This document shows, in pieces, positions 19,664 through 63,550 of a DNA stretch of 64,000 nt. The position numbers and the translations under genes were made by a program. Each line of letters begins with the position of its first letter. The stretch's first letter is position 1. Source of the stretch: Eledone cirrhosa (Eukaryota); contig OZ024740.1 in the NCBI GenBank assembly GCA_964016885.1, forward strand, positions 189,472,001 to 189,536,000, written 5' to 3'. The notes beneath the pieces were generated by a model that was given only the letters and a program-made list of their open reading frames with translations, made no database searches and was not told where the DNA came from.

Positions 19664-19830
19664 GTTAAATTTAATTTCGTTTCGTTATTTCTTTTTATCG
19701 TTTCCGCTGAACCGGTGCGTACAATGACTCACGTTCTATGCAAATTGGTCTGCCCACTACTAATTTTCATAGAAAAAGCATATAACGATATATGCTTTTA
19801 CGATTCTCTAGAGAAGCCGGAAGATGGGTA

Positions 19831-19875
19831 AATATTGCTGATGAGATGTAATAACATCGAAACTAGTCCAATATT
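19831..19875 (+). ncRNA. Intact minimal type I hammerhead ribozyme
   Basis: AATATTG CTGATGA GATGT aata ACATC GAAA CTAG TC CAATATT: 7-bp stem I, 5-bp stem II, palindromic ACTAGT stem III, GUC cleavage after 19868. Confidence 0.93.
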
Positions 19876-20301
19876 CCTGTCTGGCTCTCTGTAGAATAGA
19901 GGAAAGGTGTTTCCTTGAAAACCCGTATGACTCTAAAACCCGGTTTGTCTGTTTGGTTACATACAGACTAGCTAGACACTCACAGTAAAGTGTCCAGTGA
20001 AAAACTCGGTACATGTACATATGTATACGTGTGTGTATTTATATGCATACTAGTATTTCAGTATACATATGTGGATGCACACTTTTAACTTAATTGTTTA
20101 AGCGTCAGTCATACAAAAGTGAGTTACAAACGAAACGAAATTTAATTTCGTTTCGTTATTTGTTTTTATCGTTTCCGCTGAACCGGTGCGTACAATGACT
20201 CACGTTCTATGCAAGTTGGTCTGCCCACTACTAATTTTCATAGAAAAAGCATATAACGATATATGCTTTTACGATTCTCTAGAGGAGCCGGAGGATGGGT
20301 A

Positions 20302-20346
20302 AATATTGCTGATGAGATGTAATAACATCGAAACTAGTCCAATATT
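20302..20346 (+). ncRNA. Intact minimal type I hammerhead ribozyme, second unit
   Basis: Identical to 19831-19875. Confidence 0.93.
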
Positions 20347-20632
20347 CCTGTCTGGCTCTCTGGGGAATAGAGGAAAGGTGTTTCCTTGAAAACCCGTATG
20401 ACTCTAAAACCCGGTTTGTCTGTTTGGTTACATACAGACTAGCTAGACACTCACAGTAAAGTGTCCAGTGAAAAACTCGGTACATGTACATATGTATACT
20501 TGTGTGTATTTATATGCATACTAGTATTTCAGTATACATATGTGGATGTACACTTTTAACTTAATTGTTTAAGCGTCAGTCATACAAAAGTGAGTTATAA
20601 ACGAAACGAAATTTAATTTCGTTTCGTTATTT

Positions 20633-20702
<70 letters not shown>

Positions 20703-21689: not shown

Positions 21690-23460
21690 AACTAAATAGA
21701 TACGCCTTTAGCCGTTGACGTTGTCTCCCTCTCCATTACAGTCCCCGCTCATCCAACTGTCGATATGTTGACGGACTGCGTGGTTCCAGATGACATTCAT
21801 TGCTACGGCCTCCATCCGACGGATATACACCAGCTTTTGTCCTTCACAGTTGACAACACGTACTTCACCTTTCACCACCACACATACAGACAGACAACAG
21901 GATTACCCATGGGATCCAGCCTATGGGGCCTGCTGGCCATTACCTATATGAACCAGCTAAAATGCCGAGCCCTCAATACCTACCATTCCCATACGTTCTT
22001 CACCCGATATGTAGATGACATACTCATCCTAACATCATCGCGTGAGGAGGCGGATGAATTATACACGACATTCTCCCACATGGACGCCAGTATAAAGTTC
22101 AGCACGGAACACCCCGATGACCGCGGATCCCTATCTCTACCGGACTTCCAACTTAGGGTAACAGAGGGAGGCAACATCCACACCTGCTTCTATTAAAAAT
22201 CCGCCTGCGGGGACCTGTTCGTACATTTCAGATCAGCCCTCCCAGCCGGCGCTAAGTTCGGATACATAAGGAACGAACTCACACGTATCCGGAACAAATG
22301 CACCGTTGCTAAAGACACACACACCACACATTTCCCGGAAGTACTCAAACTGAACGCATACGCGACGTCCACCACGAACCGTGCCAGAAAGAACAGAGGA
22401 CACCAAACCCGAGGAACTAACACCTGCTTCCTGAAGCTCCAACACTTCAGTGACGAAACAACAACAGCCATCCGCAGAACTATCAGACGAGAGGGACTAG
22501 ATATCCAACTAGCCCACTCAGGACCTTCTCTACGCGGACAGCTAACCAAAAGACACTCCACTAGACATGACAGCCGCTACAGGCTAGCCAACTGCCCCAT
22601 CAACGACACAAACCAACTGCCCCATCAACGACACAGGCTTACGTCGTATACTGATTAGAGTGCGACAAATGCAGCAACTTCTACGTAGGTAGCACCACCA
22701 GACCGACCACTTCATAAAAATAAAAGAACACCTCAATACTAACGCTTTCTCATTTAACAAACACCTAGGGAAATTCAAAAACACCGACAAAAGCATAACA
22801 GTTAGGATAGAAACTAAGGAAAGAAACCTCGGCAATCTTAGAATTAAGGAAGAACTGATTATAGATAAAACAGAACCACCAATCAATAATAGACTAGAAC
22901 TCAACACCCAATTTATAACTTGATAGAACACCTAGCTCCACACTTACACCCCCCTCTCACACACACGCATACGTACACACATACGCACTCACACACACAC
23001 ACGCTTACACTTCCACTTATTCTCTCTCACACACACACATACACACACAAAGACGAGTTTTAACATGATAGAGCATATAGCCCCCAGATTTACGTACAGA
23101 CGTATCTTCTCTCTCTCACACACACACATACTTACGTCTTCACGTATTCTCCCACACACTTAAACAGACATGTACAAAACCCCTTTTGAAGGGAGACTAC
23201 TCTTTATCCACCTAACCTTCATTCTTTGACATTAGAGATAGAACAGAATCTCTAAACCATTTCCTGTCAGCATGACTGGCACGCTATTTAGAACGCTGGT
23301 TGAACCACTTTACTTCCCTCAGAAGAAGAGACTCGAAAATTAAGGATATTTAAGTAAATTTAAGGTAAAAGACTAATTGTCAACAATATCTTTTGCATTT
23401 GCATTTATATTCTATATCCATATCTGCATTCTTTTGGCCTTACAACTACAAACGTTTATA
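21690..23460 (+). mobile_element. 5'-truncated Penelope/Poseidon-like PLE pseudogene
   Basis: AVDVVSL, YRQTTGLPMGS and RYVDDI (21765-22196). GIY-YIG relic FYVGST..IKEH..LRIKEELI (about 22650-22920). Decayed HHR at 23317-23345. Homologous to 56.6-59.3 kb. Confidence 0.88.
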
Positions 23461-23734
23461 TAATATATATTATATATATATATATATATTATATATATAT
23501 ATATCATATATAAATTATATATATATATATATCTTATATATATATTATATTTGTATTATATATATATATTATATATATATCATATATATATTATATATAT
23601 TATATATACATAATATATATATATTATATAATATTATATATATATATTATATATATATATATATACATATATATATAGCGGCGATGAATTAGTTTTGCGA
23701 GGTTTTTTATATGAAATCGTGTGTCGAAACAAAT

Positions 23735-26700
23735 ATTGTTATACTTGGGGAGGGTCATATTTGTGTAATATTGCCAGAATGAATAACAGAACACACTCAC
23801 TGTTTGGTTGGTTTTCGCTTCTCGCTTCTGTGTCTTACAGACAGAAACGCATTAACGGTAAGGAAATCCGAAATCTCATCACAGCAAACGAGAGAGATAA
23901 CTTCATGAGCGTCATCCGACGTGAAACGAAATACGCTCGAAACGAATGCAATAGGCATTTCAATAAGAAATTAGAATGGATGAATAAGAAAAAACTAGAA
24001 GAAAGGAAAATCGAATATTCTCAAAAATACCCAGATAACATCGACAATATCCGTATGACTGATGTAAAACTACCGGAAGAATTTACCAATGACCACACAG
24101 TAAATATCTATGGGAACACTTTAATAAGTGAACAAGAACAACAAATCCTGCGGCTACCACCAAAATTTGCCATCTACAAAAGGATTAACCCTATGGAGTG
24201 CAAAACGGAGCTGGAAAAGTGTTTCACAAAAATACGTTGGAATGCAAAGGTAAACAACAACAACAATAATAACGGTAGTAGTAATATAAACAATAACTCT
24301 GAGTATAGAAATAACAGCCATAACTATAACAATAGCAGGAAAGTGAGAAATAGTGATAATGGTAATAATACTAGCGATAGACAGAACAACAACAACCACA
24401 ATAATAATAATAATAGAAACATTAACCACAGACACAGCAGCAGCGACCACAGTAGTAATAACGGTAACAATACGAACAACAACAAAAATAACCACAGTGG
24501 TAATAATGGAAATAGTACATGTAGCAACATCAATAATAGACACAACAAAAACAATAAACATAATAAAAGTAACAACCACAATGGTAGAAATAACAGTAAC
24601 AACAACAACAATAACGGTGAAGTAAACAACAATACATCTAGCAATCAGAACAATAATAATAATGCTAATGATAGAAACAATAACAACCACCATGATAACA
24701 ATAATAGCAACACACACAACTATGACGATAGATATAATGACAACCCCTTAGAGAAACTATTTTTCAACCCAGATGACAAAACATATAAGATGGGTAATAT
24801 CTATCCTACGAGGTTACCCTTTAATGAAAGAGTTTGCATACCACAACAAATAGATGACGAGACAGAGGCACAGTTCACCATAGCTAGAAATAAGATTAGA
24901 CAAATAGTAGACAGGTATACTAAGAGACAAAGCAGACCAGAGGCCCAACAACTTGGGAGGAAACCTGTAGAAGGCTTGGTTAGCCTCAAGCAGCGCACAA
25001 GGGATGGTGAGGTAGTATGTCTACCCACGGATGAGTCTGATAGGATGTCAATAGATACCATGCAGAACTACATCAAGGCTATGCAACCCCACATCACCAA
25101 CACGAGCGAAATTGCACAACAAACACACGATGGGAGAGAGAAAATCCTCAACGCTCACATGATGATGTGGACTGACATCCTAAAGCCAAGCAGACGCACT
25201 GCCAACAACTTCCAGGCGTCTAATAATGGCATACCACCCTTGTATGGGCTCCGCAAAGACTACAAGACGGTCGACGACCCGACGACCACAGGGCCACCAA
25301 CAAGACCCGTATGCTGAGCTAATATAGCTAGCAACTACAGGATCTCCTACTTCCTCTCAATGGTTATACGCCCCATAATCAAGATGTCCCCAGATGTATG
25401 TGACAGTACAGAGGACCTCCTCAGCAGAATCAGTGAGTGCAACAAAAACAGGAGCCTATCCAACTGCATAATAGGCAGCATGGATGTGGTGTCACTGTAC
25501 CCATCCATTAACATTGATTTTGCTGTGAAAAGATGTGTGGAGATGATCATTGAGAGTGAGGTGGAGTTCTGCGACGTCGACACAGACGAACTGGGCCTCC
25601 TACTTAGACTTACCTACGACACTTACTACCTAGACAGCCATGACCTTAGATGTTTCTTCCCTAGTAGACCTATAAGAGGTAGACCTTCCACCATAACCTC
25701 AATGGCAAAAAGGACTCCCATGGGAAGGTGGATTGGGTTGACCAAAGCTATACGGACCCCCCAAAACAATGATCAGGTAAGAAAAATGGTCGCACTTGCA
25801 ATAGGGGCTAGTATAAAAAAAACTACCCTAAAGGGCCACATATTTAAGTTCAACGAGAAGATCTACACCCAAAATGAGAGAGCAGCCATCGGCGTCAGCA
25901 TAGCTGGTGATGTTGCCAACCTTTTCATGGTATGGTGGGAAAAGAGACTTAAAGATCTCCTTAATGAGAGCTCCATAGACTTCATCATGTACTCTCGTTA
26001 TGTAGACGATATCAATATAGTTTAAGAACACCCCCACTAGAGAGCACTAACAAGTTTGATTTAGAACGTAGCACGATGGAAAGCATCCAGCAGATAGATA
26101 ATTCCATACACCAGAGTATAACTGTATCTATCGACTTCCCTTCCAAACACCCTAACAATAGACTACCTGTATTAGACACATAACTCTGGATTAACACTAT
26201 AGACGAGAGAGCCCAAATTCTCCACTCACACTATGCTAAACCCATGGCCTCCAGATACCTGATACTCAAAAACTCAGCAATGTCCAGTAGTGCTAAGTTT
26301 AATATTCTGATCGCAGATTTGGTACGAGTGTTGAAGAATGTGTCCCGCATGTGCGACCCAACAGAAATGGAAAGACACATCCAACACTTCATCAACCGCA
26401 TGCAGTTCTCTGGCTACAACCAAAGAGACAGAGTCAGAGTATACGAAGGTGCCATGGAAAAGCATAAGACCCTCATAGAACTGGACATGAAAGGAATTTA
26501 CCCATTATACAGGAGCAAATCATGGAATGGCATAGATAGGGCTAGACATAAGATAGGGAAAGCCACCTCATGGTACGACAACCAGAGATACCAGAGTGCC
26601 ATGTTTGTGGACGCCACCCCTGGAGGGAAATTAGCTAACCAGTGTAGAAAGGCCCTGAGAAAGACCCACTTAAAAGTAAAGGTGGTAGAAAAGCCGGGAA

Positions 26701-27650
26701 CCACCATAAAATCCCTGATCAGCAAAACCTACCCTTTTAAGAAAACCCACTGTACCAATAGGAAATTATCATATGTAAGGTGAACCTCCGGATAAACTGT
26801 AAAACTAGAAACGTAGTCTATAGCATAAGATGTACAGAGGGAACTTGCAGAAACATGACAACAACATACATAGGTGAGACAGCTCGTAGCATAGGTGAAA
26901 GGATAGACCAACACTGGGGGGAACTAAAAGGACGAAAAAACGGGTCAGTACTATACTAACATGCTAGACAACAACATGACGGTAACATAGACAACATAGA
27001 AATTAGAATAATATCTAAACATAGAAAAGACCCAGCAGATAGGCAAATCAGAGAGGCCAGTGAAATAGAAATTAGAAGACCAAGGCTAAACAGAAAGAAT
27101 GAATGGAATAACAACAACACCCAAACAAACAACACTGACCTAAGAGAAGTATAAATAAGTAAATAAAATAAAATAAATAAATAAATAAATAAATACATAC
27201 ACAAGCACAATAACAACAAGCACATGAACACACACCAGTCACCCATCACACAGCAAACAAAAGACTATACATACACGCAAACGCATGCGCAAAGACGACA
27301 AAATAAAATAAACAAACAAGCAAATAAATAAATAAATATATAGACAGACTGAATAAAAATGGCGTAGACATACAATACAACAGGAGGAAGATATAACACC
27401 ACTGACGATGTTGCAGATGTGCAACGAAAGATTTATGATAAACTATATATATGTGTGTTTGTGTCTTTATTGTATCTGTATTATTTTTGACCGTCGGTCA
27501 GTCAATGGCAACATTGAGGACCGAGTAAGTTAGATTACCGATATAAAAGACACAGAAGCGAGAAGCGAAAACCAACCAAACAGTGAGTGTGTTCTGTTAT
27601 TAATTCTGGCAATATTACACAAATATGACCCTCCCCAAGTATAACCATAT
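23735..27650 (+). mobile_element. Near-complete PLE (clade not assigned) with an inverted terminal copy of about 98 bp
   Basis: 23739-23836 is the reverse complement of 27547-27644. HHR CTGACGA T GTTGCA gatg TGCAAC GAAA GATT TA at 27398-27439. Flanked by TA-rich tracts. Confidence 0.9.
23837..27115 (+). pseudogene. PLE polyprotein (RT plus GIY-YIG) with stops/frameshifts and an Asn-rich insert
   Basis: PPLYGLRKD..PTRPVC, GSMDVVSLYPSI, AAIGVSIAG, SRYVDDI, LPVLD, SGY. GIY-YIG NVVYSIRC..YIGETARSIGERIDQH..REA..LNRKNEW at about 26770-27110. Confidence 0.9.
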
Positions 27651-32515: not shown

Positions 32516-32844
32516 ATACATATAATGCATATATATATATATATTTGAGAGCTAGATCTGAGGTCCGGATCCAGCAATCGAAACGGTCGGGGCTAAGCCG
32601 TGGGTACCCTGACTCTTTCTTTTCTTATTTGGAGATGGCAAAGCCAACCACTAATCTCTCGTATACAGGAAACTGACTGGCCTGTCTACTGATATGCATA
32701 TCTGGCTTATTAGTGAATCTGCTAATATGCAGATCTAACTGATCAACCAATCTGCTAATATAAAAATCAGGCCAATCAGTCACTGTATATTTTATAAAAT
32801 ATCATATATTTTCACTTGCTCTTACAGTTGGCAGGTTAACAGTG

Positions 32845-32892
32845 AACTGCACTGATGAAGGGTGATACCCAGAAACATTAGTGTCTGCAGTT
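32845..32892 (+). ncRNA. Intact type I hammerhead ribozyme
   Basis: AACTGCA CTGATGA A GGGT gat ACCC A GAA ACA ttag TGT C TGCAGTT; GUC cleavage after 32885. Confidence 0.88.
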
Positions 32893-34689
32893 TTGTTTAC
32901 ATGCCAACACAAGTACAAGAATGAGGGGCTTATTCTACTGACATGGCTTTAAATAATTGCAAACGAATCGAATATTCTTATTAATATTCGAAAAACTCAG
33001 ATTACATTTATTGTAGTCAGCCATGTAGAGTGATAATTTAAAAAAAAATTAATTTATTATTAGACATGTTTAGATATGTTCATATATATATATATGTATA
33101 AGTATATATGTTTATATATGTGTGTGTGTATATATGTATATATACAGACGCATACGAACATAACTAATTCATTAACTCATTTAGTACTACCCACTACGTT
33201 CCTCGTAATTCTTTACCTTACTCTAGAATCTTAGTAATATCGGTTTAAGACTGGCATAAGTTTATGTATATCACAAGAAAATATAGCCGAGCAAATCGAC
33301 ACCAGAATTTAAATAAGCCTTTGTTTTAACGATCCAGGAAGAGCATTGGCGAGATTTTCTCTTAGTATATAGAAACATAATCAAATTCCACATGATGTTT
33401 TGCCCAGTTCTCTATTGCCCTTTAAAATAGTATTTTTTTAAATATTTAACACAATCAACTGTATGCAAACTATACAGTAAACTGGTTATGGAGATAGCTT
33501 TGCAGGTAATTCGATAAAACTATTCAGCCTGACATAATTTCCATATTGCTTATCATACTAAAATTTGTGATTTCCTTAACTAACACCCACCCTTATACTT
33601 CAAATAATCTAAAATAAATTTATCACCATATAACAATATTATTACTGGAAGAATAATTGTTTTCCAAATTTTAAAAATCTTTTTTCTCGAACTAATGCTG
33701 TTAAATTTTCTACTTATTTACACTGTCTTGTCGTTACTATTTAGAAATTGATTGCGTGACTAATTTTATTGTTCTAAATCTGTGTGTAACACACATTCTC
33801 TCAACTTGATATTCTCATTGACCTATCTATGCGTGTCTTCGGCTTCATTATCTTATTGACAACCCCTGTTTTAAACATACATAATTTACCTGTAGCAAGT
33901 TATCTTGCGTGATTCTATTAGAATTTATACATTCCTTCCGGCAATATCTTTCTTCGTTACCAATTGATAAGCAAGCTTAATTCAAATTAACACGAACCTG
34001 CTCTCTTTTGTTATCAAAAGCTATAATGATATTTGTAATTTTCAAACTTGTCTTTAACAGTGCTGTATTATATTCTAATTGAAAAACATACAAACTCAAA
34101 CATTTCTAATTAACCAAAACGTTTGGATTTACGTAAGAAAATGAGATGACTGTCTTCTTTCGTTTAATTAAGACAAAATAATTATGAATCCTTAGTAATT
34201 TTAAAGCATTTTTTATAACTAACACATTCGTGTTGGACATTTAGGTATATTACACGAAGCTAAGGGTATTAATTGGCTAACACTTCTGCATAAACCTAAG
34301 CAAATACATTTGAATTTCAATTACAAATTACGTAAGTTTTCATTTACAAGGCTTGGATGTCATTTAAATCAATCGACTCTTTGAACACACACGGAGAGTT
34401 ATAAGTGTAACTAACTAGCCAACGAGAAAAGAAAAGGAAGTGAGATAATTACATCGAGACTTACAGTTGTTAAGTCGGTACTATATATATTTAACTTATT
34501 TCAGTCATTGGACGCCACACATGTTAAGGGACATATTTTAAGAAAAAAATAATCGGCATTGACAACCCAAGCATTTATTTTATTGTGGTACTCATTTTCC
34601 CATATCCTTGGTTGTCAAAATTTCGGGTCATAATATGATGCAAATACAACAAAAAAGTTGGACGTTAAACATAATCGCTACTTTTCCCG

Positions 34690-36367: not shown

Positions 36368-36678
36368 TTATCATAATGCTCGGTGTGTTTGTAAACAAAC
36401 ATCCCGAATTAAGCCGTACAGTGTCTAGCAACCATCGTTGCTCATTTGTTCAACACTGACAAAGGAACGCGTGTACTAGTTTCAAGCTTATTAGCTATCG
36501 TCAGCAACGTATACCTTCCTGGCAGATGGTTGAACGTCTGAAAGTATATACTTTCTTTATGCATATTAACGGCTGAGCAGCTTAATTTGCATATCGAGTG
36601 AGTTAATCGCCCGGGGTAACGAAAACGATAAACGGAAAAAATGAAACGAAATTTCATTTTTCACTCTTAGTACGGCTG
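36368..36678 (-). mobile_element. Diverged single retrozyme-like unit with hammerhead at about 36467-36510
   Basis: Aligns with 44730-45045. Minus: CTGACGA T AGCT aata AGCT T GAAA CTAG TA, with a weakened stem I. Confidence 0.8.
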
Positions 36679-37075
36679 TTACCTAAATGTTTTTCGTATA
36701 CGGTGATTACAGATTATGATCAATTCCTTTTTTTTATTTAAGAAATCGTCCTTAAATTTAGTAATTTCCAAGATCTTTCCTGAACATAGTCTGCATTCCC
36801 TCCTGTTCCCAAGATATGGAGATTTTTGTAGAATGGTGTTCCACGATAACTTGAAATCTATTTTTTTCTTTTTATAATTATTTACCGCTTCAGCTAAAGA
36901 TGTGGTGTTTGCAAGTTTAGTATTGTTGAAACTACTAGAGTGTGCGTAAAATCTTTTCTCAAATGTGTTTGATGTAGATCCTATATAACTTTTGTTGGGG
37001 TTTGTAGTAGACACAGTGCCTTTATATATTACATTATTAATCAAAGATTTTCCAATTAAGGGGATACATTCAACT
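36679..37075 (-). pseudogene. Naiad-like GIY-YIG endonuclease fragment
   Basis: NVIYKGTV..SYIGST..FEKRFYAH..CRLC..LNKKKEL..CNH. Confidence 0.88.
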
Positions 37076-37480
37076 ATCAGTTTGACAATCCCCTTCCTAA
37101 TAGATTTTTATGCCAACTCTACTAACACCCTTCAACCATTCCTTTCAAAGGGTCATGACCTCAACTAAAGTGTATTATTTTTCATCTTAACACCATAAGA
37201 AAAAACAATTTGATTCGTTAGTTCTTCAACTCCTCCAAATAAGGACATGATACTAACATGCTACTAATTCTGAGTAAAATTATTATTGAGTACAATTATT
37301 ATTGCTTTTGAAAACAGCTGGTGATATGCATGTAAGTACATATTCTCTCTATCTGATAGTTTGTAAACTTACATATATCAATAACTGAGTATAGATACAA
37401 TGTACTATCACCATCTAGAAACGATCGTAAAGCAGTGAAGTATATCTCTAATGACTTGATTTTTTTATTACATTGTTTTA

Positions 37481-37722: not shown

Positions 37723-40700
37723 AGCGAATGTGAGGGTAATATACATGGCATGGCTTTTATAGAGAAGTGGTATTAGACCAGAACAATAATATCAATAACA
37801 ACATAACTAGACACTGAATAGTTAAATTAATAACATCAATATAAGTGAGAAATATAATATAATGATAAAATGATAAAACTAGCATGGTAACCGAAGTGAT
37901 ATGATACAGATGTATGAAGTTGACATGTGAAAACTACTATATGTTACTTTAGACGTAGTTTTTGAGGGATGGAGAGATAACTAATAAAATGTACCCAGAG
38001 ATAGATAATTGGAATCTGCCCCTTTAAGTGCAATTATGAGTGATCTACATACAAGTGTGCTGAGCTTATAAAGGCACGCTAGCAATAAACGGGAGATTGA
38101 TTTATGGTCTGATAGATAAGTATTTTCGTTGTATTAACTTATTTCGAATCATGGGGGTTTAGTTTTCACAACTTCGATGACACATAGTGTATAATTAAGA
38201 CAATAAATCAACAATAAAATATGCATGGTAAATAGATAGAGAACATGATGAATAAAATTAGGGACAGGGTACATTAAGATGATCACAATAGTAATAAGAG
38301 GAAAATAAGAACGTAAGAGTTTCAAGGAGTGAAAGGGTAATAATATAATGTACTTAGAATTAGGTTCATCTGTTAGAGATCATGGGTGCTAATGCAAGAT
38401 ATGTAGCTACAATTGTTTGGTCCGAAAGAATAAACAACAGAAAATGCTAGATTTATTTATGGGCCGGCATGATAATTGGTAGATGTTTGTAGATATTATT
38501 GCCCCATCTTGGTGATATAGATGTAGGGAAGTTGGAAGGTGTTTATAGTTCTGAGGTGGGCTGTCTGAGAATGCGATTTCATGCGTTAAATTCTAAGTGA
38601 TTTTCCATTAAGTTCAGGGATGCTGGTTCGAATCACGGTGGTTTAAATCTTGTAAATTTAGTAGCAATGCTATGTCTGCAGAAAATTGACTTTTCTATTT
38701 TGCTGTTAAGTAGCATTTTATCTTACCTGAAGATATGTATCAATTCAAGGTTGCATAGCCCGCAATGGGACATACCGCTGCTATAGGCCTTTGCGGCCGC
38801 TTATTTCGACCAGCTAATATTCTAATCAATGTTTCTGTCGTTAAGTTGCCAGATTTTATTGACGAGGCTTGTGGAATTCACCAGTGCACGGTTCTACATT
38901 GAATGTCTGTGTACATACCATCTTTTTTTTAAAAACACTCACGGTGGATCCAATGTAGTGCCAGGTGGAGTTGGCCGAGTTTACAGTACACATTACACTA
39001 AGCTATAATCCAGGCATCTATTCCCTAATGGACACTTATCTGGTAGGTGGCAATTGCAGGTTGATGTATTATTCTGTGCAGCTTTGGCATTGTGGTTCTG
39101 CAAGTTGTTATGTGTGGGTTGCGATTCATGTCTATTGAAGTTTTGCTTTGGTGGGTTCCGATGCGTTTGTGGTTGTGATACTGTTATGTGCTCTGTGATT
39201 AGTGTTTGGTGCTATGTTGTGTATTGGTGGGGTAGTTTCCTTAGAGATATTCTTGTGGTTGATCTTACGTATGGGCGATTCTATGTTGGCTGCAGTTGAG
39301 TATGAAAGTTTTATAGTTTTTCTATTGAAGATTTTATGGTATCTATGCGATGTAGGGAAGTGTTTATCTATTAGTTTAAAAAACGCAGAAGGCAGTTTAG
39401 TTCTTATAATGGAGTTGAAGATCGGATTAAACCATAGGTATTTTTTTTCTCTTGTTCTTCTATAGTTTTTTTTTTTTAAATTATTAGTGCTTATTCTTCC
39501 TACTCTTGGTGCTAATTATTTAGTCCTATGCCTAGTCCTGTATCTTTTATTTTGGTATGAGCGGTTGGTGTTGGTTTTATTTGGAGTGTTTGTGTCGTCC
39601 TTATCAGTTATAAACTGCAGCTTATCCTTGTGTCCAGCCCTATGTAATGCTACGTTATAATTATTAGCATGTTCATTAAATATTTTTAGGTTCGAGGATA
39701 GGCGGGATATTCTAAGGGATATACTACGTGCTATGGATTTAATTATGGAACGGGGGTGGTTCGAGTTGTAACTGATGTAGGCTAGATTTTTCATTATTTT
39801 TGTGGAAGGGTTCCATCAATCCTGTGTTTATGTTTAGAGTTACATCTAAACAATTTGCTTTTTTAGAATTTAGTTCGAAAGTAATATCTAGGCCTAGTTT
39901 TTTAAAGAATGTTGTAATGTTTTTTCGTAACCTTTCCATGTTCTGGTTATTTAAGTTTTTAGCTATAAGGAGGGTGTCATCTCTATAAATTCCTCATTGG
40001 AGGTTATTGAATTCTTTATGTAGGTTGTGTGCTATAAATATCCCCACAACGTCCGTTATTTGCGCTGAGTCATTCGATCCCATTGTGATATCGAAGCTAT
40101 TCCTCCTATTTTTCTTTCCCATTTTCAAATTTTATGATAGTCCTTCTAGCAGCTAGTAGTATTTTAATTTCATCAGAGGTAAGGTCTGAGTTATTTTGGG
40201 CAAAGGTTAGCGCCTTATTTAGTGTGACTGGGGAGATGGATGTGTAGTAATCATTTTTGTCGAATTGAATGAAGTTGTATTTTTCTCTGTTTCTTATTTT
40301 ACTGAACCATTCTATTGCTTCGCTAGTGTTACCCCATAAACTGATTTCAAGTTTTCCCTTAATTTGTGCGATTATCCTTTCTAGAATGTATTTGCTTATT
40401 TTACCGATATCTGACTTAGATGGGCATATTAATCTAATTGTAGGGTTTGTTTCAAAATTATTTTTGTGATCCTTAAGGTTAAATATGGGCTTACATGGGA
40501 TTAGAGGTTCGGTTTTATCGGATATTTCCAGTTTATTTACTATGCTATGTCCTTCCTTATTAATGCTAGTGAGTGTAGATTCATTTGTATTTTTGTATTT
40601 TTTGTGCAGTTCACGTCGGATGAAATGCTAATTATTGCAGAACCACAATGCGAAAGTTGCACAGAATAATACGTCAAACTGCAATTGCCACCTACCAGAT

Positions 40701-42663
40701 AAGTGCTCATTAGTGGATAGATGCCTGGATTCTAGCTTAGTGTACATGTGTACTGTAAACTCGGCCAAATCCACTTGGCATACATTGGATCCACCGCGAG
40801 TGTCTTTAAAAAAAGATGGTATGTACACAGACATTCAATGAAGAACCGTGCACTGGTGAATTCCCCAACCCTCGTCAATAAAATCTGGCAACTTAAGCAC
40901 AAAAATCTTGATTACAATATTAGCTGATCGAAATAGGCTGGACACAAACACTCCAGATAAAACCAACATCAACCGCCTATACCGAAATAAAAGATACAGG
41001 ACAGGCATATAACTAAACAATTAGCACCAAAAGTAGGAAGACTAAGCACTAATAATAAAAATAACAAAAACTATAGAAGAACTAGAGAAAGAAAATACCC
41101 ATGGCTTAATCCGATCTTCAACTCATCTATAAGAACTAAACTGCCTTCTACGTTTTTTAAACTAATAGATAAACACTTCCCTACATCGCATATATACCAT
41201 AAAATCTTCAATAGAAAATCTATAAAACTTTCATACTCAACTGCAGCCAACATAGAATCGCCCATACGTAAGATCAACCACAAGAATATCTCTAAGGAAA
41301 CTACCCCACCAATACACAACATAGCACCAAACACTAAACACAGAGCACATAACAGTATCACAACCACAAACGCATCGGAACCCACCGAAGCAAAACTCCA
41401 ATAGGCATGAATCGCAACCCACACATAACAACTTGCAGAACCACAATGCCAAAGCTGCACAGAATAATATTTCAACCTGCAATTGCCACCTACCAGATAA
41501 GTGTCCATTAGTGAATAGATGCCTGGATTATAGCTTAGTGTAATGTGTACTGTAAACTTGGCCAACTCCACCTGGCACTACATTGGATCCATCGCGATTG
41601 ATTTAAAAAAAGATTGTATGTACACAGACATTCAATGAAGAACCGTGCACTGGTGAATTCCACAACCCTCGTCAATAAAATCTGGCACATTAAGGACAAA
41701 ACATTAATTACAATATTAGCAGGTCGAAATTAGCGGCCGCAAAGGCCTATAGCAGCGGTATGTCCCATTGCAGGCTATGCAACCTTGAATTGCTACATAT
41801 CTTAAGGTACGATAAAATGCTACAGCAAGATAGAAAAGTCAATTTTCTGCAGACATAGGATTGCTACTAAATTTACGTGATTTAAACCACCGTGATTTGA
41901 ACCAGCATCCCTGAACTTAATGGAAAATCACTTAGAACTTAACGTATGAAATCCACATTCTCAGACAGCCCACCTCAGATCTATAAACACCATCCAGCCT
42001 CCCTACATCTATATCACCAAGATGGGGCAATAATATCTACTGACATCTACCAATTATCATGTCATCCCATAAATCAATCTAGCATTTTCTGTTGTTTATT
42101 CTTTCGGACCAAACAATTGTAGCTACATATCTCGCATTAGCACCCATGATCTCTAACAGATGAACCTAATTCTAAGTACATTATATTATAACCCTTACAC
42201 TCCTTGAGATTCTTACTTTCTTATTTTCCTCTTATTACGATTATGATCATCTTAATGTACCCTGTCCCTAATTTTATTCATCATGTTCTCTATCTATTTG
42301 CTATGCATATTTTATTATTGATTTATTGTCTTAACTATACACTACGTGTCATCGAAGTTGTGAAAACTAAACCCCCATGATTCGAAATAAGTTAATAAAA
42401 CGAAAATACTTATCTATCAGACTATATATCAATCTCCCGTTTATTGCTAGCGTGCCTTTATAAGCTCAGCACACTTGTATGTAGATCACTCATAATTGAA
42501 CTTAAAGGGGCAGATTCCAAATATCTATCTCTGGGTACATTTTATTAGTTATCTCTCCATCCCTCAAAAACTACGTCTAAAGTAACCTATAGTAGTTTTC
42601 ACATGTCACCTTCATACATCTGTATCATATCACTTCGGTTACCATGCTAGTTTTATCATTTTA

Positions 42664-44477: not shown

Positions 44478-44555
<78 letters not shown>

Positions 44556-44601
44556 TGCATGTATACGTACATACATATATGTATACAGACGTACAGTAGC
44601 A

Positions 44602-44669
<68 letters not shown>

Positions 44670-44834
44670 TATATACATATGCATACAGGTACACATACAT
44701 ATATGCACGTATCAGTTTAGCGGACGCTTATTATAACGCCGCTTTGTTCGTTTGTAAACAAACTGAATAGCCTGAATTTATGCCATACGGTGTTAAGGCA
44801 ACCACGTCACCTTTTTGTTCAACACTGACACAGG

Positions 44835-44879
44835 AACGATGTACTAGTTTCAAGCTTGTTAGCTATCATCAGCACCGTT
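44835..44879 (-). ncRNA. Intact minimal type I hammerhead
   Basis: AACGGTG CTGATGA T AGCT aaca AGCT T GAAA CTAG TA CATCGTT; GUA triplet. Confidence 0.9.
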
Positions 44880-45201
44880 TACCCATCTGCGAGATAGTTG
44901 AACGTTCGAAAGTATATACTTTCCTTATGAAAATTAACGGCTGAGCAGCCTAATTTGCATATTGAGTGAGTTAAATCGGTCAGGCATACCGAAAACGATA
45001 AATTGAAATAAAATGAAAACGAAATTTCATTTCTCACTCTTAGTATGGCACTTACTTAAATGTAAGTATGCATGTATACGTACATACATATATGTATACA
45101 GACGTAAAGTAGCATGCATATATATATATATATATCATCATCATCATCATCATCAACGTTTAACGTCCGTGTTCCACGCTTGCATGGGTTTGGACGGGGG
45201 T

Positions 45202-45256
<55 letters not shown>

Positions 45257-45421
45257 TATATACATATGCATACAGGTACACATACATATATGCACGTATC
45301 AGTTTAGCGGACGCTTATTATAACGCCGCTTTGTTCGTTTGTAAACAAACTGAATAGCCTGAATTTATGCCATACGGTGTTAAGGCAACCACGTCACCTT
45401 TTTGTTCAACACTGACACAGG

Positions 45422-45466
45422 AACGATGTACTAGTTTCAAGCTTGTTAGCTATCATCAGCACCGTT
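45422..45466 (-). ncRNA. Intact minimal type I hammerhead
   Basis: Identical to 44835-44879. Confidence 0.9.
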
Positions 45467-45701
45467 TACCCATCTGCCAGATAGTTGAACGTTCGAAAGT
45501 ATATACTTTCCTTATGAAAATTAACGACTGAGCAGCCTAATTTGCATATTGAGTGAGTTAAATCGGTCAGGCATACCGAAAACGATAAATTGAAATAAAA
45601 TGAAAACGAAATGTCATTCCTCACTCTTAGTATGGCACTTACTTATATGTAAGTATGCATGTATACGTACATACATATATGTATACAGACGTAAAGTAGC
45701 A

Positions 45702-45783
<82 letters not shown>

Positions 45784-45935
45784 TATATACATATGCATAC
45801 AGGTACACATACATATATGCACGTATCAGTTTAGCGGACGCTTATTATAACGTTCGAACAAAGCGGCGTTATAATAAGCGTCCGCTAAACTGATACGTGC
45901 ATATATGTATGTGTACCTGTATGCATATGTATATA

Positions 45936-46002
<67 letters not shown>

Positions 46003-46240
46003 GCATGCTATTGTACGTCTGTATACATATATGTATGTACGTATACATGCATACTTACATTTAAGTAAGTGCCACACTAAGAGTGAGAAACGAAATTTCG
46101 TTTTCATTTTATTTCAATTTATCGTTTTCGGTATGCCTGACCGATTTAACTCACTCAATATGCAAATTAGGCTGCTCAGCCGTTAATTTTCATAAGGAAA
46201 GTATATACTTTCGAACGTTCAACTATCTGGGAGATGGGTA

Positions 46241-46285
46241 AACGGTGCTGATGATAGCTAACATGCTTGAAACTAGTACATCGTT
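46241..46285 (+). ncRNA. Minimal type I hammerhead with one stem II mismatch
   Basis: AACGGTG CTGATGA T AGCT aaca TGCT T GAAA CTAG TA CATCGTT. Confidence 0.85.
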
Positions 46286-46450
46286 CCTGTATCAGTGTTG
46301 AACAAAAAGGTGACGTGGTTGCCTTAACACCGTATGGCATAAATTCAGGCTGTTCAGTTTGTTTACAAACGAACAAAGCGGCGTCATAATAAGCGTCCGC
46401 TAAACTGATACGTGCATATATGTATGTGTACCTGTATGCATATGTATATA

Positions 46451-46546
<96 letters not shown>

Positions 46547-46685
46547 GGTTTGAGGTTCACCACTGTATAGAGCTGGTCTATTCCGTATGGTCAATCGTAA
46601 TGCAATAATATAGAGAGTACTCAAAGTAAAGCAGTTCAACCGTCTTTGTTTTTGTAGTTGGTGGTGCTATTACGGAGTTAAATAT

Positions 46686-46804
46686 TATAATGAAATGACA
46701 GGAGGCTGGATTTGTGTAAATCCTTGAAAGGTTTATTATTGAAATGATCATAGTATAATAAACCTTTCAAGGATTTACACAAATCCAGCCTCCTGTCATT
46801 TCAT

Positions 46805-46808
<4 letters not shown>
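46686..46808. repeat. Perfect 54-bp inverted repeat with 15-nt spacer, inside a short insertion (46543-46810) in a (TA)n tract
   Basis: 46686-46739 is the exact reverse complement of 46755-46808. GAGTACTCAA motif at 46615. Confidence 0.9.
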
Positions 46809-46847
<39 letters not shown>

Positions 46848-47082
46848 TGCTACTGTACGTCTGTATACATATATGTATGTACGTATACATGCATACTTAC
46901 ATTTAAGTAAGTGCCATACTAAGAGTGAGAAATGAAATTTCGTTTTCATTTTATTTCAATTTATCGTTTTCGGTATGCCTGACCGATTTAACTCACTCAA
47001 TATGCAAATTAGGCTGCTCAGCCGTTAATTTTCATAAGGAAAGTATATACTTTCGAACGTTCAACTATCTGGCAGATGGGTA

Positions 47083-47127
47083 AACGGTGCTGATGATAGC
47101 TAACAAGCTTGAAACTAGTACATCGTT
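47083..47127 (+). ncRNA. Intact minimal type I hammerhead
   Basis: Same sequence as the minus-strand motif at 44835-44879. Confidence 0.9.
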
Positions 47128-47292
47128 CCTGTGTCAGTGTTGAACAAAAAGGTGACGTGGTTGCCTTAACACCGTATGGCATAAATTCAGGCTGTTCAGT
47201 TTGTTTACAAACGAACTAAGCGGCGTTATAATAAGCGTCCGCTAAACTGATACGTGCATATATGTATGTGTACCTGTATGCATATGTATATA

Positions 47293-47382
<90 letters not shown>

Positions 47383-47493
47383 TGCTACTGTACGTCTGTA
47401 TACATATATGTATGTACGTATACATGCATAGTTACATTTAAGTAAGTGCCATACTAAGAGTGAAAAATGAAATTTCGTTTTCATTTTATTTCA

Positions 47494-47525
<32 letters not shown>

Positions 47526-56635: not shown

Positions 56636-59350
56636 TGTGGAATAATAAGTAAATATCTTTAAGTTGTTTGGAAGCCTCGGCAAATGGGTAAATCTCCGGG
56701 TAACAAGATCCGGTGGTGGAGAGAGAGATGTAAATGGGTGTACGTTGAGATGCGTGGTGTGTATAAGATGTATAGAAGAATGAAGGAAAGAGTATAAAGG
56801 ATAACATTAAAGTAACAACACGAGAGAGAGTTACCTTGGGAGAGATTTAATTGTCCCTATATATTTCGGATTCACATCCATCAACTGGGGTTTTTTTCCG
56901 GGGTGGGGGAAAGGTTGTCTGTCGGACAGGTGCGAAACGCGTCCTCCGTTGTTTGTTATTTTGAATATCTGAGGTATTCAGCAGAGCGCGCGGGCGCGTG
57001 AAATGGGGTCGGTCGGGCAGAGGTCAGCGGCCGAATAAGGGAGTGGGGTGGCGCTAGCTGTCAGTCCATTCTCTGCCTGTTTGTTAGATGTTACTGTGTG
57101 TGTGTGTGTTGTTGTCTGGCTTGAGTGTGTGTGTGTGTGCGTGTGTTGTTGTCTAGTTCCTCTGTATTGGCAGTGTAGTATGTTCGTATGGTGGAATGCT
57201 ACTGTGTGTGTGTGTGTAGTTGTCTCGTTTGTGTGTGTGTGTGTGTGTGCGTGTGTTGCTGCATCGTTTGTTAACTTAAACCAGCCATTTAATTTCGCTT
57301 CTCTCTGATCGATTGTTTATTTGCGGTTGCAGGGGTTTGATAAAAAGCGCTTCCTTGATACGTAACGTGCCGACGTTTCTTTCAGGCGCTAGAATTGTGA
57401 CAATGGGCCTTCCGTCTTTGTGTCCGCATTTGTCTATGTGTTTCCGGAAAGACAAGGCCCTGGTTTTAGTGTGTTCCTTGATCCGGATGTGCAAAGGTCA
57501 GATTGTGCTACCTATGTAGTATTGGTTGCACCTGTCACATTCTATCTTATACACGACGTTTGTGCGTAGGCAACAGTTCGCATGGCGTATCGGGCAGTCT
57601 CTGAGGGAGCATGCGTCAGTAGATTTACCGGGTTTCTGGAGAGGCATCTTCGCAGGGAGGGGCCAGAGTGGGCCAGGTGGATGTCGAGGCCCTCCCTCCG
57701 TATAGCCTTGCGGATAGCGTTGGTGGTATTCTCGCCCAGGTGTGGCATTTTAAGGAAGCACTTACCTTGGGTGCCTCTCTGTCTCTTGTGTTTGGTGTCT
57801 CCTATTCTGTCTGTGATCGAGGTAGGGTACCCGTTCGTCTCCAGCACCTCGAGGAATCGCTTGGTATGAGTGACACCACTCGCGACATCGCTGCATCTAT
57901 TTTTGATTCGCGCGATCTCGTTCGTGATGTATCCTCTTTTGGCACTGTTAGGAAGGGCGGACTTGTAGTGAACGAACAGGTCCCTGCAGGCTGTCTTTCG
58001 GTAGAAATTGCAGTGGATCCTTCCCTGTTCAGTGATGTTGATTCGGAAGTCGAGGAGGGCAAGTGACCCGTCTTCGTTGGGGCGTTCAACACTGAAGTCA
58101 ATCTGCTCGTCCGTGTTGTTGAACGTCTCATAGATTCTGTTCGCCGTGTCTTGGGAAGATGTGATGATGAGGATATCGTCCACGTACCTTGAGAAAAAGG
58201 CTTCGGCGTTGGGGTGGCAGGCGTTGAGTGCCTTGCGTTCGAGGTTGTGCATGTAAGAGATCGCTAGCACACCTGATAGGCTTGATCCCATGGGCAATCC
58301 CGAGGTTTGTTGGTATGTTTGGTCAAAGAATCCGAAGTAGGTGTTATCGACGACGATGGATAGGAGTATTGACGGCCGGGAGTGCCGGGAGTGCCGAGAC
58401 CGAGGTGTAGAGAGCGACTACATCAAGGCTGAAGGCATATCTGTTATTCCTTCTGGTGTCGGGATCCATTTGATACAGGCGCTTCAACACCTCCTCGGAG
58501 CTGTTAACGTGTCCCGGCAAGGTGTCTAAGATGGGTTTGAGTATTCTGGCTAGGAGCCATGAAATTTTGTAGAGTGGTCCCTCCACGCTCGATACGATGG
58601 GCCTGATCTTCAGGTGGGGTCCCTGTTTGTGTGTTTTCACGAGGTCGTAGAAGGCGGATAGTCTGCTGCTCCTCTTGAGGAGGTTGTATCTCAGCTTCTT
58701 CGGGAGCTTCCGCCGGTCGCAGATCTTGGTCCAGGCGGCGTTGATGTGCTCTTCTATCTGCGCGGGAGTGATTCCCGTGACCTTGGAGTAGAGGTTGTCA
58801 TCGTCAAGGTGTTGGAGGGCCAGGGTGTTGTAGGCCTCTCTGCTGATGACGCAGAAGTGTTTTCCCTTGTGGGAGGGGAGATAGATGAGGTTCTTCGATT
58901 TTAGGTTGGAGAGAGTGGTGAGTTGAGATTTGGTGAGGTTATGTGTTGTGCGTGTGTGTTTGTGAAGTATATCCGAGATGAATTGTTTTAGCCTGATGAG
59001 TTTAGTGTCGAGTTCGTTGTTGGTGGGTGGGGGGTGGAGTGGGTTGTCGGGGTGGTAAGTGGGGAACTTGGGGTGGGTTGCGTGGGCGCTGTTACTTTCT
59101 GTGGCCCTGTTGATGGTGGTCACCCATTTAAGTTGGTAAGCGGCTCAACAAAAGTTGGCCTCGATGTTGAGTTTGAGTCTGTCGTCGAGACGTTGTGAGA
59201 CGATGAACTTGGGTCCGAGGTGTGGGAGTTTCAGCTCGTCGCTCGTGAGAGTGCCGGTTAAGTTGGTGACCAGGTGCGTCGCATCGTTGAAGTATGGCTC
59301 GGTGTTGGTGGATGCGGCGGTGGCGGTTGTTAAGTTGTTGTCAGCTGGGC
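56636..59350 (-). mobile_element. Penelope/Poseidon-like PLE pseudogene (RT plus GIY-YIG plus 3' pseudo-LTR)
   Basis: KTHK..IRPIVS, SLDVVALYTSV (58344-59123); PMGSSLSG, RYVDDI, LLDF, YRK (57542-58297); YIGST..RIKEH..IKEALFI (57276-57530). Decayed HHR at 56855-56890. Confidence 0.92.
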
Positions 59351-59351
59351 G

Positions 59352-59592
59352 CACCGAAAACGATAAATGGAAAAGAATGAAACGAAATTTCATTTCTCAC
59401 TCTTAGTACGGCTGATACTTAAATGTAAATATGTATGTACACGCGCATACATATATGTATACAGACGTACAGTAGTATGCATATATATACATACATGCAC
59501 ACACATATATATGTACGTAAGGGTTTACCGAACATTTATTATAATGTTCGGTTTGTTTGTTTGTAAACAAACAAACAGCCCGAATTACGCCG
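59352..59592 (-). mobile_element. Fragment of the retrozyme-like unit fused to the PLE 5' truncation point
   Basis: ACCGAAAACGATAAAT..AATGAAACGAAATTTCATTTCTCACTCTTAGTA..ACAGACGTACAGTAG..TTTGTAAACAAAC match the 44.6-47.5 kb unit. Confidence 0.85.
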
Positions 59593-59640
59593 TTCATTCT
59601 TTAGAAATCATCAGGATCCTGATGATTTCTAAAGAATGAA
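59593..59640. repeat. Perfect spacer-less 48-bp palindrome
   Basis: TTCATTCTTTAGAAATCATCAGGA|TCCTGATGATTTCTAAAGAATGAA. The right arm continues as a homolog of 17586-17640. Confidence 0.9.
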
Positions 59641-59674
59641 ACAGTTCTAGTCCTGTAGTATCTCATCTATATAT

Positions 59675-60879: not shown

Positions 60880-63550
60880 ATAGGGAAAAAAGAGTCGATT
60901 ATTAGGAAGAAAAATATCTTTTTTCTGGGTTAGAAAATGTTTAAAACAAAATATTTTACTTTGTGTTAAGTGTTACGGTATTAGTTAATTTATTTATTAA
61001 TTAACAATAGCATTTATTTATTCATTTATATTTATTTATCTATTTATTATTAATAATTGTCTATTACCGGTTGCAGCATTTTATGCATTAGCAAAGGATG
61101 GAATTTTTATTGGTATAAAATGTTGGAGAGAAAATGATGTCATGTTGAACATGTTAAGGAAATGGGAAAGAAAGAATAATATTATTTACAAACAAGGTTT
61201 TTGAAGTAAAAAGAAAAAAGAAAAAAAAAGGCTTTGATGTGGAACATGATAAGGTAATGGTTAAGAAAGAAAGATATTATTTACAGGCATAGTTCTTGAG
61301 GATAAGCAGTTCAAAATGTGTTATGGCAAGAGCGCTTAGTTGATCCATGATGGAGGCAAATGGTAGTCTGGGGTTTGATATGATTTCCCTTTTTAGAGAG
61401 TTAATATGCAGGGGGAGGTAATTCAAGGTGGTCGGGTAGGGGGGGAGAGAAATGAGAGGAGGTAATTCATTTATATAAGAAAAAGGTAACTCTTTAGAGA
61501 ACATAGGCATTTGGTTTTGGTTCATTGTTCCTTCCAGTTTAAGATTAGTCCGAAGTTTAGTCCATTAAGTAGAGGTTGGAATTTGTTAATGAATTACGTT
61601 TTCTTATTGGTACGATGAATGAAAGAAGCGTTGTCTATGAATTTGTAAATGGGGAAAAATTTTAAAGTTTCGATGTTGGTTAGGTGTACAATTGGCGATA
61701 TGTTCACTAAAAGCAATCTTTCTGTATTCCTGTATTTTGATTTGTTTTTTGTCTGTTCTTAGTAGTGCTCTTGACAACCTGAGCAGGTCAAAACATAGAT
61801 TAGGTTTTCAGATGCACATGTAAAGTTCTGTTTAACAGTGAAATGCTGTCCTTGTTTAAAATGGAATGTTGAATTTTCTATTAGATTTATGCATATACCA
61901 CAGTTGGGCCTCCTGCATTTTTTACTGTAGGGTTTATTGTGAGGGTTGGTTGGATTTTGGCTTGTGTTAGGATGTTTTTTATGGATTTAGGTTGTCTTTT
62001 GCTCTTTATGATGTTGTGTGTTTGGAGGATTTTGTTCATTCTTGCGTCTCGTTTTAGTAAAGGAATGTTATGGAGGATGGTGTCGAATGTCTCATTGTTG
62101 AGGGGGTTGTGTATGGAGATGTATGGTAGCGTTTTCTGTTGCGGTTCATTCCTGCGTTTGTGGTGTTTGAGTTCCTGGATGTTGAGTTTTAGGGCACGTT
62201 GGAATCCATTGTTGATTAGGGATGGTGGGTAGTTTCTGCTGATAAGTGTGTTCATTAATTATTCTAGTCGTGTGTAGCATGTGTATTTATCTGAAACTAT
62301 TGTGCAGATCCTTCTGGCTAGGTTATAAGGAATTGCCATTTTGGTATGGCGAAGGTGGCACGAGCTAAATGGAAGATATTGTTTGGAGTCTGGAGGATGA
62401 AGCAGTCGTCCAGATATCTCTTCCTGTTTTTTTTCTGTGTCGGTAGAAGTGTTAACCGTATTTTTCTAGAACTTTGCGGCAGAGTGGTTTCCAAATATAC
62501 CATGACAAGGTTGGCGTATGAGGGGGCTACTTTCGTGCCCATGGCAGTCCCAGATTTGTAGTATTTGGCATCGAATTCGAAGAAGTTGTTTTACAAGATG
62601 AAGTTGTTTTACAAGATGAATTTGAGTCCCTCCAACACAAATTGTTTAGGGATGCGCTGTGGGAGTTCACTAGAGAACTTTTCAAGCCAGAGTTGTCTTG
62701 CCTCTATACCTAGGTTGTGTGGGATTTTGGAATATAGATTGATGACATCAAAGGTTACTAGTAGGGTATGTTCATTATTAAGTGTTGTTGGAGGTGATTG
62801 AAAATGTCAAGGTCGTCCCTTATGAAGCTTTTTATGTGTTTTAGGAAAGGTTTAAGCAGAATATCTAGGAAGTTGCTTAGGCGGTAGGTTTCACATGTAG
62901 TACCTTCTATTATGGGTCTTAATTTAAGGTCATCAGGAGGGGTATATTGATGTAAATGTCTGTGGCTTGCTTGCAGACCCTGCCTATTACTTCGCTTTTT
63001 TTGTGTCTTTGGGATAACGTAGAAAAGGCTGGTTCTGCTTTTGAAATTGGTGATGTAGTTGTATTCCTTGTCGGTAAGGCCTTCTTTGTAAAGGGTTGTT
63101 AGGGATTTTAGGTTTCTCATTATTTTCTGTTGTGTGTAGAGTTGGGCCTTTTCGCAATATGTTTGGTTTTCTAGAGTTGAGAGTAGTAGAGTCGTGTAGT
63201 AATCTGTCCTCATAAGGATTACTGCACTCCCTTTATCCGCCTCTTTGAATGTTAGGGTTTTATCGTTCTTTAGACTGTTAAGACGATTCCATTCTCTTTT
63301 GCTTAGGTTTGGTTTTTGTTTATGTCTGTGTAGTCGGTGTTATGGGTAATTAGTAATGTGTTCGCAGAATTGATCGAGGAATTTGTTCTTGCCTTTTGGT
63401 GGGGTGTAGTTGCTTCTATTTCTGGCTATTGAGTCATCCTCATTGTATTTGTCGTATAGTTGCACGCTGAGTCTTAGTTTTCTACAGGATTCTGCAATGT
63501 CTTCCTTCATTTCGGGGTAGTTTGGTCATTGGGAAGTTGGTGCCAATTTC
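60877..63550 (-). mobile_element. Neptune-like PLE pseudogene
   Basis: EADKGSAVILM, LRPII, TFDVINLYSKIPH, GTAMGTKVAPSYANL, RYLDDCF, KRQPKSIKNIL, FTCASENL. Internal deletions. A short inverted terminal match links about 60901-60920 with 63581-63600. Confidence 0.85.

Follow-up and report, generated by a model that had tools for sequence, protein, structure and literature searches.

Non-LTR retrozymes of metazoans have been described as tandemly repeated, non-coding units a few hundred bases long, each with one type I hammerhead, with strong self-pairing, thousands of copies and co-occurring Penelope-like elements (Cervera and de la Pena 2020, PMC7229834; Li, Clavereau and Pollet 2026, bioRxiv 10.64898/2026.07.22.740005; in the accessible parts of both). 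A 2020 review, as far as its available text goes, regards them as seemingly promoter-less, reports no conserved motif pointing to a partner and, as no promoter was seen, assumes transcription by read-through (PMC7761336). Newt satellite 2, a hammerhead satellite reported to carry an internal snRNA-type Pol II promoter (accessible text of PMC2220036 and PMC6765202), stood alone. In the Schistosoma Sm-alpha SINE-like repeats a promoter is followed by a hammerhead in tandem, and once the monomer is cut the promoter comes to lie in its 3' portion; it is reported there as a Pol III promoter (accessible text of PMC6765202). With such an arrangement tandem copies are needed. The Sm-alpha promoter is reportedly tRNA-like, and the newt repeat, in the work of Coats, Zhang and Epstein in 1994, is said to have an octamer and a proximal element, with some transcripts starting shortly before the cut.

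The repeat units analysed here lie in a 64,000-nt stretch of the Eledone cirrhosa genome (contig OZ024740.1), hereafter called the window. They share all of the above features of metazoan retrozymes, and we regard them, by sequence, as non-coding hammerhead repeats of this kind. They differ from the published retrozymes in a conserved promoter-like cassette that matches host snRNA promoters, and in insertion ends that follow the Penelope rule. Retrozymes with a hammerhead are a known kind of element; the cassette, a putative promoter, is well supported in sequence. In contrast to Sm-alpha, the putative promoter is of the external snRNA type. The likeness to newt satellite 2 is one of design, as described in the accessible text of the newt reports; the newt belongs to another animal group, and the present units combine a box of host Pol III genes with a U1/U2-spaced element and a TATA box. 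We found no published description of this cassette in hammerhead repeats in a search to which subscription journals and two retrozyme supplements were outside scope, no description of these units among the titles listed on Octopus hammerhead or Penelope repeats, and nothing relevant in the literature on mollusc snRNA promoters.

Hammerhead units in the window and the genome

The unit sequences in the window are as follows.

44552..47499, both strands: family A, a single head-to-head insertion in a (TA)n tract
~45855 down to 44552, minus: minus arm of this insertion, with the short 3' end
~45855 to 47499, plus: plus arm, with the long 3' end
19667..20640, plus: family B array of 2.1 x 471-nt units, terminating at the long end; octamer 19738 (mutated at 20209), TATA 19781, predicted start about 19810, hammerhead 19819-19891, predicted cut after 19868
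36387..36690, minus: incomplete copy of family C, a sister family (82% to A), with its octamer at 36585-36592
59353..59586, minus: C-like unit, 3' part only, running from the second hairpin to the U-rich block and fused within a Penelope-like reverse transcriptase (RT) reading frame
32690..32990, plus: decayed lineage F copy with the same cassette, missed by the initial annotation; hammerhead core at 32852

The modules of one unit, from the plus arm of family A, are the following, all on the plus strand.

46935..46970: U-rich block, forming one arm (3') of a hairpin; the long insertion arm ends at its TTTAT (46960-46964)
47001..47012: TATGCAAATTAG box with the octamer at 47002-47009; matches the box of host U6, MRP and U6atac
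47018..47022: TCAGC box at octamer+16; spacing like the TCART element of host U1/U2, weak match in family A
47026..47036: TAATTTTCATA, predicted RNA pairing partner of the octamer; identical in A and B, different in other lineages
47039..47054: palindromic hairpin with TATATA at its centre (47044-47049), a candidate TATA box
47074: predicted transcription start (TATA+30), in a GC|A context like that of the U1 genes of the host
47074..47138: type I hammerhead with a palindromic short helix III; stem I 47083-47089/47121-47127, core 47090-47096, predicted cut after 47120 (GUA)
47219..47243: second hairpin, the same as 44719-44743 of the minus arm

Re-reading of the sequence found the octamer ATGCAAAT wherever it had been annotated, at 19738, 46160 and 47002 on the plus strand and at 36585, 44953 and 45540 on the minus strand, with the altered copy at 20209; the U-rich block, the first hairpins of both families and stems I and II were likewise as claimed. 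The 527 nt given as the length of the family A unit proved not to be fixed, as four distinct units measure 456-587 because of an internal (TA)n tract. Families A and B, which had been said to differ widely, are homologous end to end (244/351 aligned columns identical). A second hairpin, thought to pair in both families at 44719-44743 and 59528-59551, does pair at both places, but the latter is part of the partial sister-family copy fused to a Penelope-like ORF and not of the 471-nt family. Six of the window's 12 octamers fall within units, and by chance a mean of 5.83 would be expected over the full window; the six exact copies of GATGGGTAAA all lie inside units. No protein-coding frames were found in the units, where frames of 100 or more residues are (TA)n read-throughs. 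Two pieces of foreign sequence sit inside the internal (TA)n tracts of family A: at 46545-46805 lies a fragment containing a long inverted repeat, and at 45125-45204 a short piece that ends in (GAT)n.

In the hammerhead, across 23 representatives of the units, whose collection is described below, both sides change in 6/7 stem I pairs and 4/4 stem II pairs, in agreement with the covariation noted initially, and 71.9% of cells are paired, compared with 60.3% in shuffles and 34-44% when the structure is slid. RNAalifold on a MAFFT alignment of these representatives gave no consensus pair, because the helices are out of register among lineages, and the pairs were then counted on the named structure. 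For the hairpin around the TATA, both-sided changes occur in just 2/5 pairs. No Rfam family matched the window at the gathering threshold; Hammerhead_HH9 (RF02275) aligns over its full length, with 32.4 bits (E 1.6e-6) for family B and 18.5 bits (E 0.057) for family A, short of its gathering score of 52 bits, and the units differ from it in a shorter helix III. In this alignment GATGGGTAAA, which had been listed as a separate module, falls on the distal part of hammerhead helix I and on its internal loop. It is not kept outside families A and B, the copy at 36585 having GGAAGGTATA instead. Taken together, the alignment and this variation assign it to the ribozyme rather than to a promoter module. 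That GATGG|GTAAA might be a splice donor and the U-rich block its pyrimidine tract was rejected by inference, since the word aligns with hammerhead helix I and lies six bases past the predicted start, and its GT is absent in lineage G and part of H. The whole region forms one fold-back (z -4.99, 0/100 shuffles), the unit as a circle is 70% paired, and GGCAG also pairs within an extended helix I; RNA structure can therefore explain part of the conservation.

The genome of 3.0 Gb holds 9,962 occurrences of GATGGGTAAA followed by a hammerhead core, compared with none for the reversed control, and 40,335 hammerhead cores with a CTAG helix III, compared with 11 in the control. A count of 35,981 for the octamer-plus-core pattern is inflated, as 15 of the first 100 matches belong to another repeat, likely a LINE coding sequence. 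An array at G000:C1:5738327-5752443 comprises at least 31 family B-type units with one inverted copy at its end.

Octamer conservation and the snRNA genes of the host

Families A and B share TAATTTTCATA (11 bases), TTTATCGTTT (10) and GATGGGTAAA (10), which are conserved as well as the octamer, so a comparison of these two families alone cannot single the octamer out, and further lineages were gathered from the genome. Patterns on the octamer plus core, and on the core alone, were used for the collection. The 123 distinct octamer-anchored segments formed 24 clusters; one, an unrelated repeat, was dropped, leaving the 23 representatives, which fall into six lineages (A/C, B, F, G, H and K). Lineages K and H were recovered only by patterns containing the octamer, one K copy excepted. 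Among A, B, F and G, TATGCAAAT is the sole word of at least six bases common to the 140 bases upstream of the core, and no such word is common to the 140 bases downstream; a shared 8-mer among these four lineages arose in 0/5000 shuffles. Since the representatives come from octamer-anchored clusters, copies chosen by the ribozyme alone were checked as well. The octamer is intact in 4/5 (A), 10/10 (B), 14/22 (C) and 11/16 (F) of those reaching that far, and in 18 of 30 lineage G loci, being decayed in three more; by reading, the other nine are truncated or non-members. Across lineages the octamer is thus conserved far above its neighbours, the opposite of what the initial annotation had named as a refutation. 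Within families its decay resembles theirs (0.955 in C, with neighbours at 0.989 and 0.969), as expected for copies after insertion. Contigs from four sequencing runs of unrecorded kind, covering 46900-47250, speak to presence and family variants only; none of their 19 variable places falls in the octamer, TCAG or TATATA, a number too small for counting.

The same box is found in promoters of the host. Three distinct U6 promoters carry TATGC(A/T)AAT(G/T)AG at -76, -77 and -78 with a TATA at -30, the single RNase MRP gene carries it at -77, and the best U6atac gene has it with one mismatch in the -76 to -78 range. The TATGCAAATNAG box of the units, comprising the octamer and its flanks, is identical to each of these five host boxes in 10-14 of 16 bases. 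The box is missing at that place in 3/20 of the U6 loci first read (L067, where an insertion displaces it, L074 and L075), in 12/12 weaker U6 matches and in 9/10 U6atac loci; most of all these box-less copies look, by reading, like truncated retrocopies. At one U6atac-like copy (L280) a reversed family F promoter cassette adjoins, perhaps as a chimeric retrocopy. None of the host U2 loci has an octamer box, and of 12 upstream variants of U1 one has it, at -399, with none nearby. Instead, 9/9 distinct promoters of host U1 and U2 have a TCART at -56 to -58, together with a TATA-like word near -30. By vertebrate rules a TATA-like word at about -30 is unusual for Pol II snRNA genes; it is present here in U1/U2 loci L203-L213, L081-L088 and L131-L132. 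The host U1, U2 and U6 genes are arranged in long tandem arrays.

The cassette combines features of both groups of host genes. The TATATA at the centre of the hairpin is likely the TATA box, and a TATA lies at octamer +40 to +45 in 22/23 representatives. Measured from box to TATA, the distance is 42 in A and 43 in B; the 46-48 of the host U6-type genes is not found in the units (40-45 in these 22 of 23), so the cassette fits neither promoter class exactly. A TCART-type element 26-27 bases before the TATA agrees in spacing and in its CA: C at octamer+17 occurs in 21/23 representatives and A at +18 in 23/23, two columns that were part of no search pattern. Its profile score is good in F and K, weak in A and poor in B. 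The U1/U2 profile, which found each host promoter at rank 1 when that promoter was left out, ranked octamer+16 first in 8/23 representatives and among the top 10 of 646 positions in 19/23 (rank 10 in family A, 242 in family B); it contains TATA columns, and TATA was also in the search pattern for most representatives. With the core columns only, the ranks were 48 (A) and 338 (B) of 698, and over all 23 the +16 offset came third behind two offsets within the octamer itself. At TATA+30, a C|A is present in 10/22 representatives and one base off in four more.

The motifs, their spacing and the match to host promoters are the observed part of the promoter case. The initial annotation had proposed an internal promoter or enhancer; octamer conservation and the match to the host box favour the promoter, and the enhancer role is not upheld. 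In the best reading the octamer would be a position-fixed part of a core promoter, followed by a TATA, rather than a free or distal enhancer.

Insertion ends and Penelope-like elements

In the accessible text of the published accounts, endonuclease-positive Penelope-like elements share with the units an inverted 5'-truncated arm, a tail at one end, AT-rich targets and a hammerhead with a short palindromic helix III (PMC8557442, PMC4209133, PMC11167929); the arm and tail are described in PMC8557442, and the tail pattern has been traced to two internal RT starts (PMC11167929). The units differ from them in having no reading frame and a tail of 60-70 bases, compared with the 30-40 published. Insertions of the units end in (TA)n at either of two places, the TTTAT of the U-rich block or a site 60-70 bases earlier. 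Of 19 loci with ribozymes on both strands, 13 combine a long and a short end and none has ends alike, six having their ends at locus edges. The TTTAT is likely a reverse-transcription start site, and from these ends the units were likely pasted back by Penelope-type enzymes. Fixed insertion ends tie the units to such enzymes without any need of sequence similarity; a comparison with one RT family at 30 loci found no sequence in common between the units and an autonomous Penelope partner.

This RT family, found from the frame 57542-58417, has 18 long and 17 short-or-other ends in its 30 loci, with both in four. It is abundant (56650-59352 on the minus strand, and loci L032-L060), and its two fixed 3' ends are separated by about 45-50 bases. 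In the 3' region of the family, about 40 bases ahead of the short end, a reverse octamer is fused to TTTACCCAT, giving ATGCAAATGGGTAAA on the opposite strand; this may be coincidence or a part of the family's own promoter. At its 5' junction a perfect 48-base palindrome (59590-59660) holds a different minimal hammerhead core without an octamer, and such cores also occur in loci L010, L057, L165 and L168. Further broken Penelope-like RT/endonuclease frames of different families lie at 16301-17593, 21696-22658, 23632-26783, 39132-41404 and 61887-63339. Pfam RVT_1 scored above cut-off in the window only for 21699-22193 and 57542-58414, and a PDB search with the RT gave one weak match. The frame at 36679-37107 on the minus strand, to which Pfam gave no name and which we take from its motif to be GIY-YIG-like, is followed immediately by the family C copy, whose first bases its stop overlaps. 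Together with the fusion at 59353, this junction may be a trace of template switching between retrozyme RNA and that of Penelope.

Candidate polymerases and a proposed cycle

We consider it reasonably probable that the units are non-LTR retrozymes with an internal snRNA-type core promoter, made up of a U6/MRP box, a CA box at the U1/U2 spacing and a TATA, and likely read by Pol II. We infer that Pol II is somewhat likelier than Pol III, because the box-to-TATA distance is 3-6 bases short, the CA box and the GC|A start are as in U1/U2, and T runs would need read-through. Promoter-bearing subfamilies have runs of 5-7 T between the ribozyme and the next promoter, and any RNA that transmits the promoter must pass runs of 4-7 T, which counts for Pol II. 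The same element and start might also belong to a type 3 (U6-type) Pol III promoter, in which the U-rich block would act as a leaky terminator and a read-through fraction would make promoter-bearing circles. The box plus TATA is indeed carried by host U6, MRP and U6atac and the box is absent from U1/U2, downstream of the predicted start no run of four or more T comes before the U-rich block in A (4/4 units), C (1/1) and B (2/3), and B insertions end at its T run. However, the unit spacing is shorter than that of the host genes by those 3-6 bases, the lack of T runs reaches significance in none of 10 unit bodies (P 0.26-0.92), and dispersed subfamilies have T6-T8 runs ahead of the promoter with insertions that end beyond those runs. 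We hold a Pol III promoter to be the less likely reading, if well worth considering. Human type 3 promoters recruit Pol II too, according to the accessible text of PMC6023835, and the two readings may therefore both hold.

That the cassette is no working promoter at all, being kept by common descent and as an RNA structure or RNA-protein site in arrays read through from host genes, seems improbable to us. It would agree with the strong folding, with an octamer that is paired in most local folds, with the other words that A and B share just as well, and with the read-through assumed by the review. Structure alone, however, predicts changes on both strands, and just the partner strand changes: partner and pairing register differ among lineages and the octamer stays constant. 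It also leaves unexplained the 12-base match and TATA spacing in common with the host U6/MRP promoters, and the octamer-plus-TCAG module that is present three times over in lineage F. Least of all do we expect the units to be pseudo-LTRs (pLTRs) of an autonomous Penelope-like element and the cassette an ordinary pLTR promoter, which we regard as very improbable. The C copy that starts at the stop of the GIY-YIG-like frame (36690) and the C-like piece ahead of the RT frame (59353) point that way, and Xenopus retrozymes are related to pLTRs according to the accessible part of a preprint (bioRxiv 10.64898/2026.07.22.740005). Unit sequence was, however, found at only 2/30 loci of the RT family, namely the window's own and one in opposite orientation behind a (TA)n tract, and the GIY-YIG-like frame matches only 3/168 unit loci, with no C copy among them. 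A role of the units as pLTRs was rejected for the one Penelope family compared, that of the RT element at 59144-57300, whose ends are its own and unlike those of the units.

With an internal snRNA-type promoter, a cycle can be proposed. Transcription would start about 30 bases past the TATA, where the ribozyme begins (47074), which precedes the predicted cut by 47 bases; the first hammerhead would remove a 47-base leader, leaving a 5'-OH. The polymerase would continue through the promoter of the next unit, whose hammerhead would free a unit-length RNA containing the promoter, which could be closed to a circle; with helix III short and palindromic, the RNA may be cleaved as a dimer. Copying by a Penelope-type RT/endonuclease would then begin either at the U-rich tail or at the site 60-70 bases earlier, and more than one unit would be pasted into (TA)n, so that new copies would again have the promoter ahead of the ribozyme. 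Such a cycle would keep the promoter under selection.

A wider reading of the cassette is tentative. It may be a hybrid promoter, in which a box of host Pol III genes, shifted 3-6 bases towards the TATA, is joined to a Pol II snRNA-type element, with a start exactly at the 5' edge of the hammerhead and read-through of oligo-T. The ribozyme would strip the cap, the promoter would travel in the circular RNA, and tens of thousands of loci would be independent transcription units; with the same design in newt satellite 2, capture of an snRNA promoter could be a recurring or ancient rule for animal retrozymes. If the cassette is active, the snRNA genes would face competition for their factors from about 40,000 or more dispersed sites. 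The cassette is retained by six diverged lineages of one genome; its bases can be matched one by one to the snRNA promoters of the host, and it gives a single predicted start.
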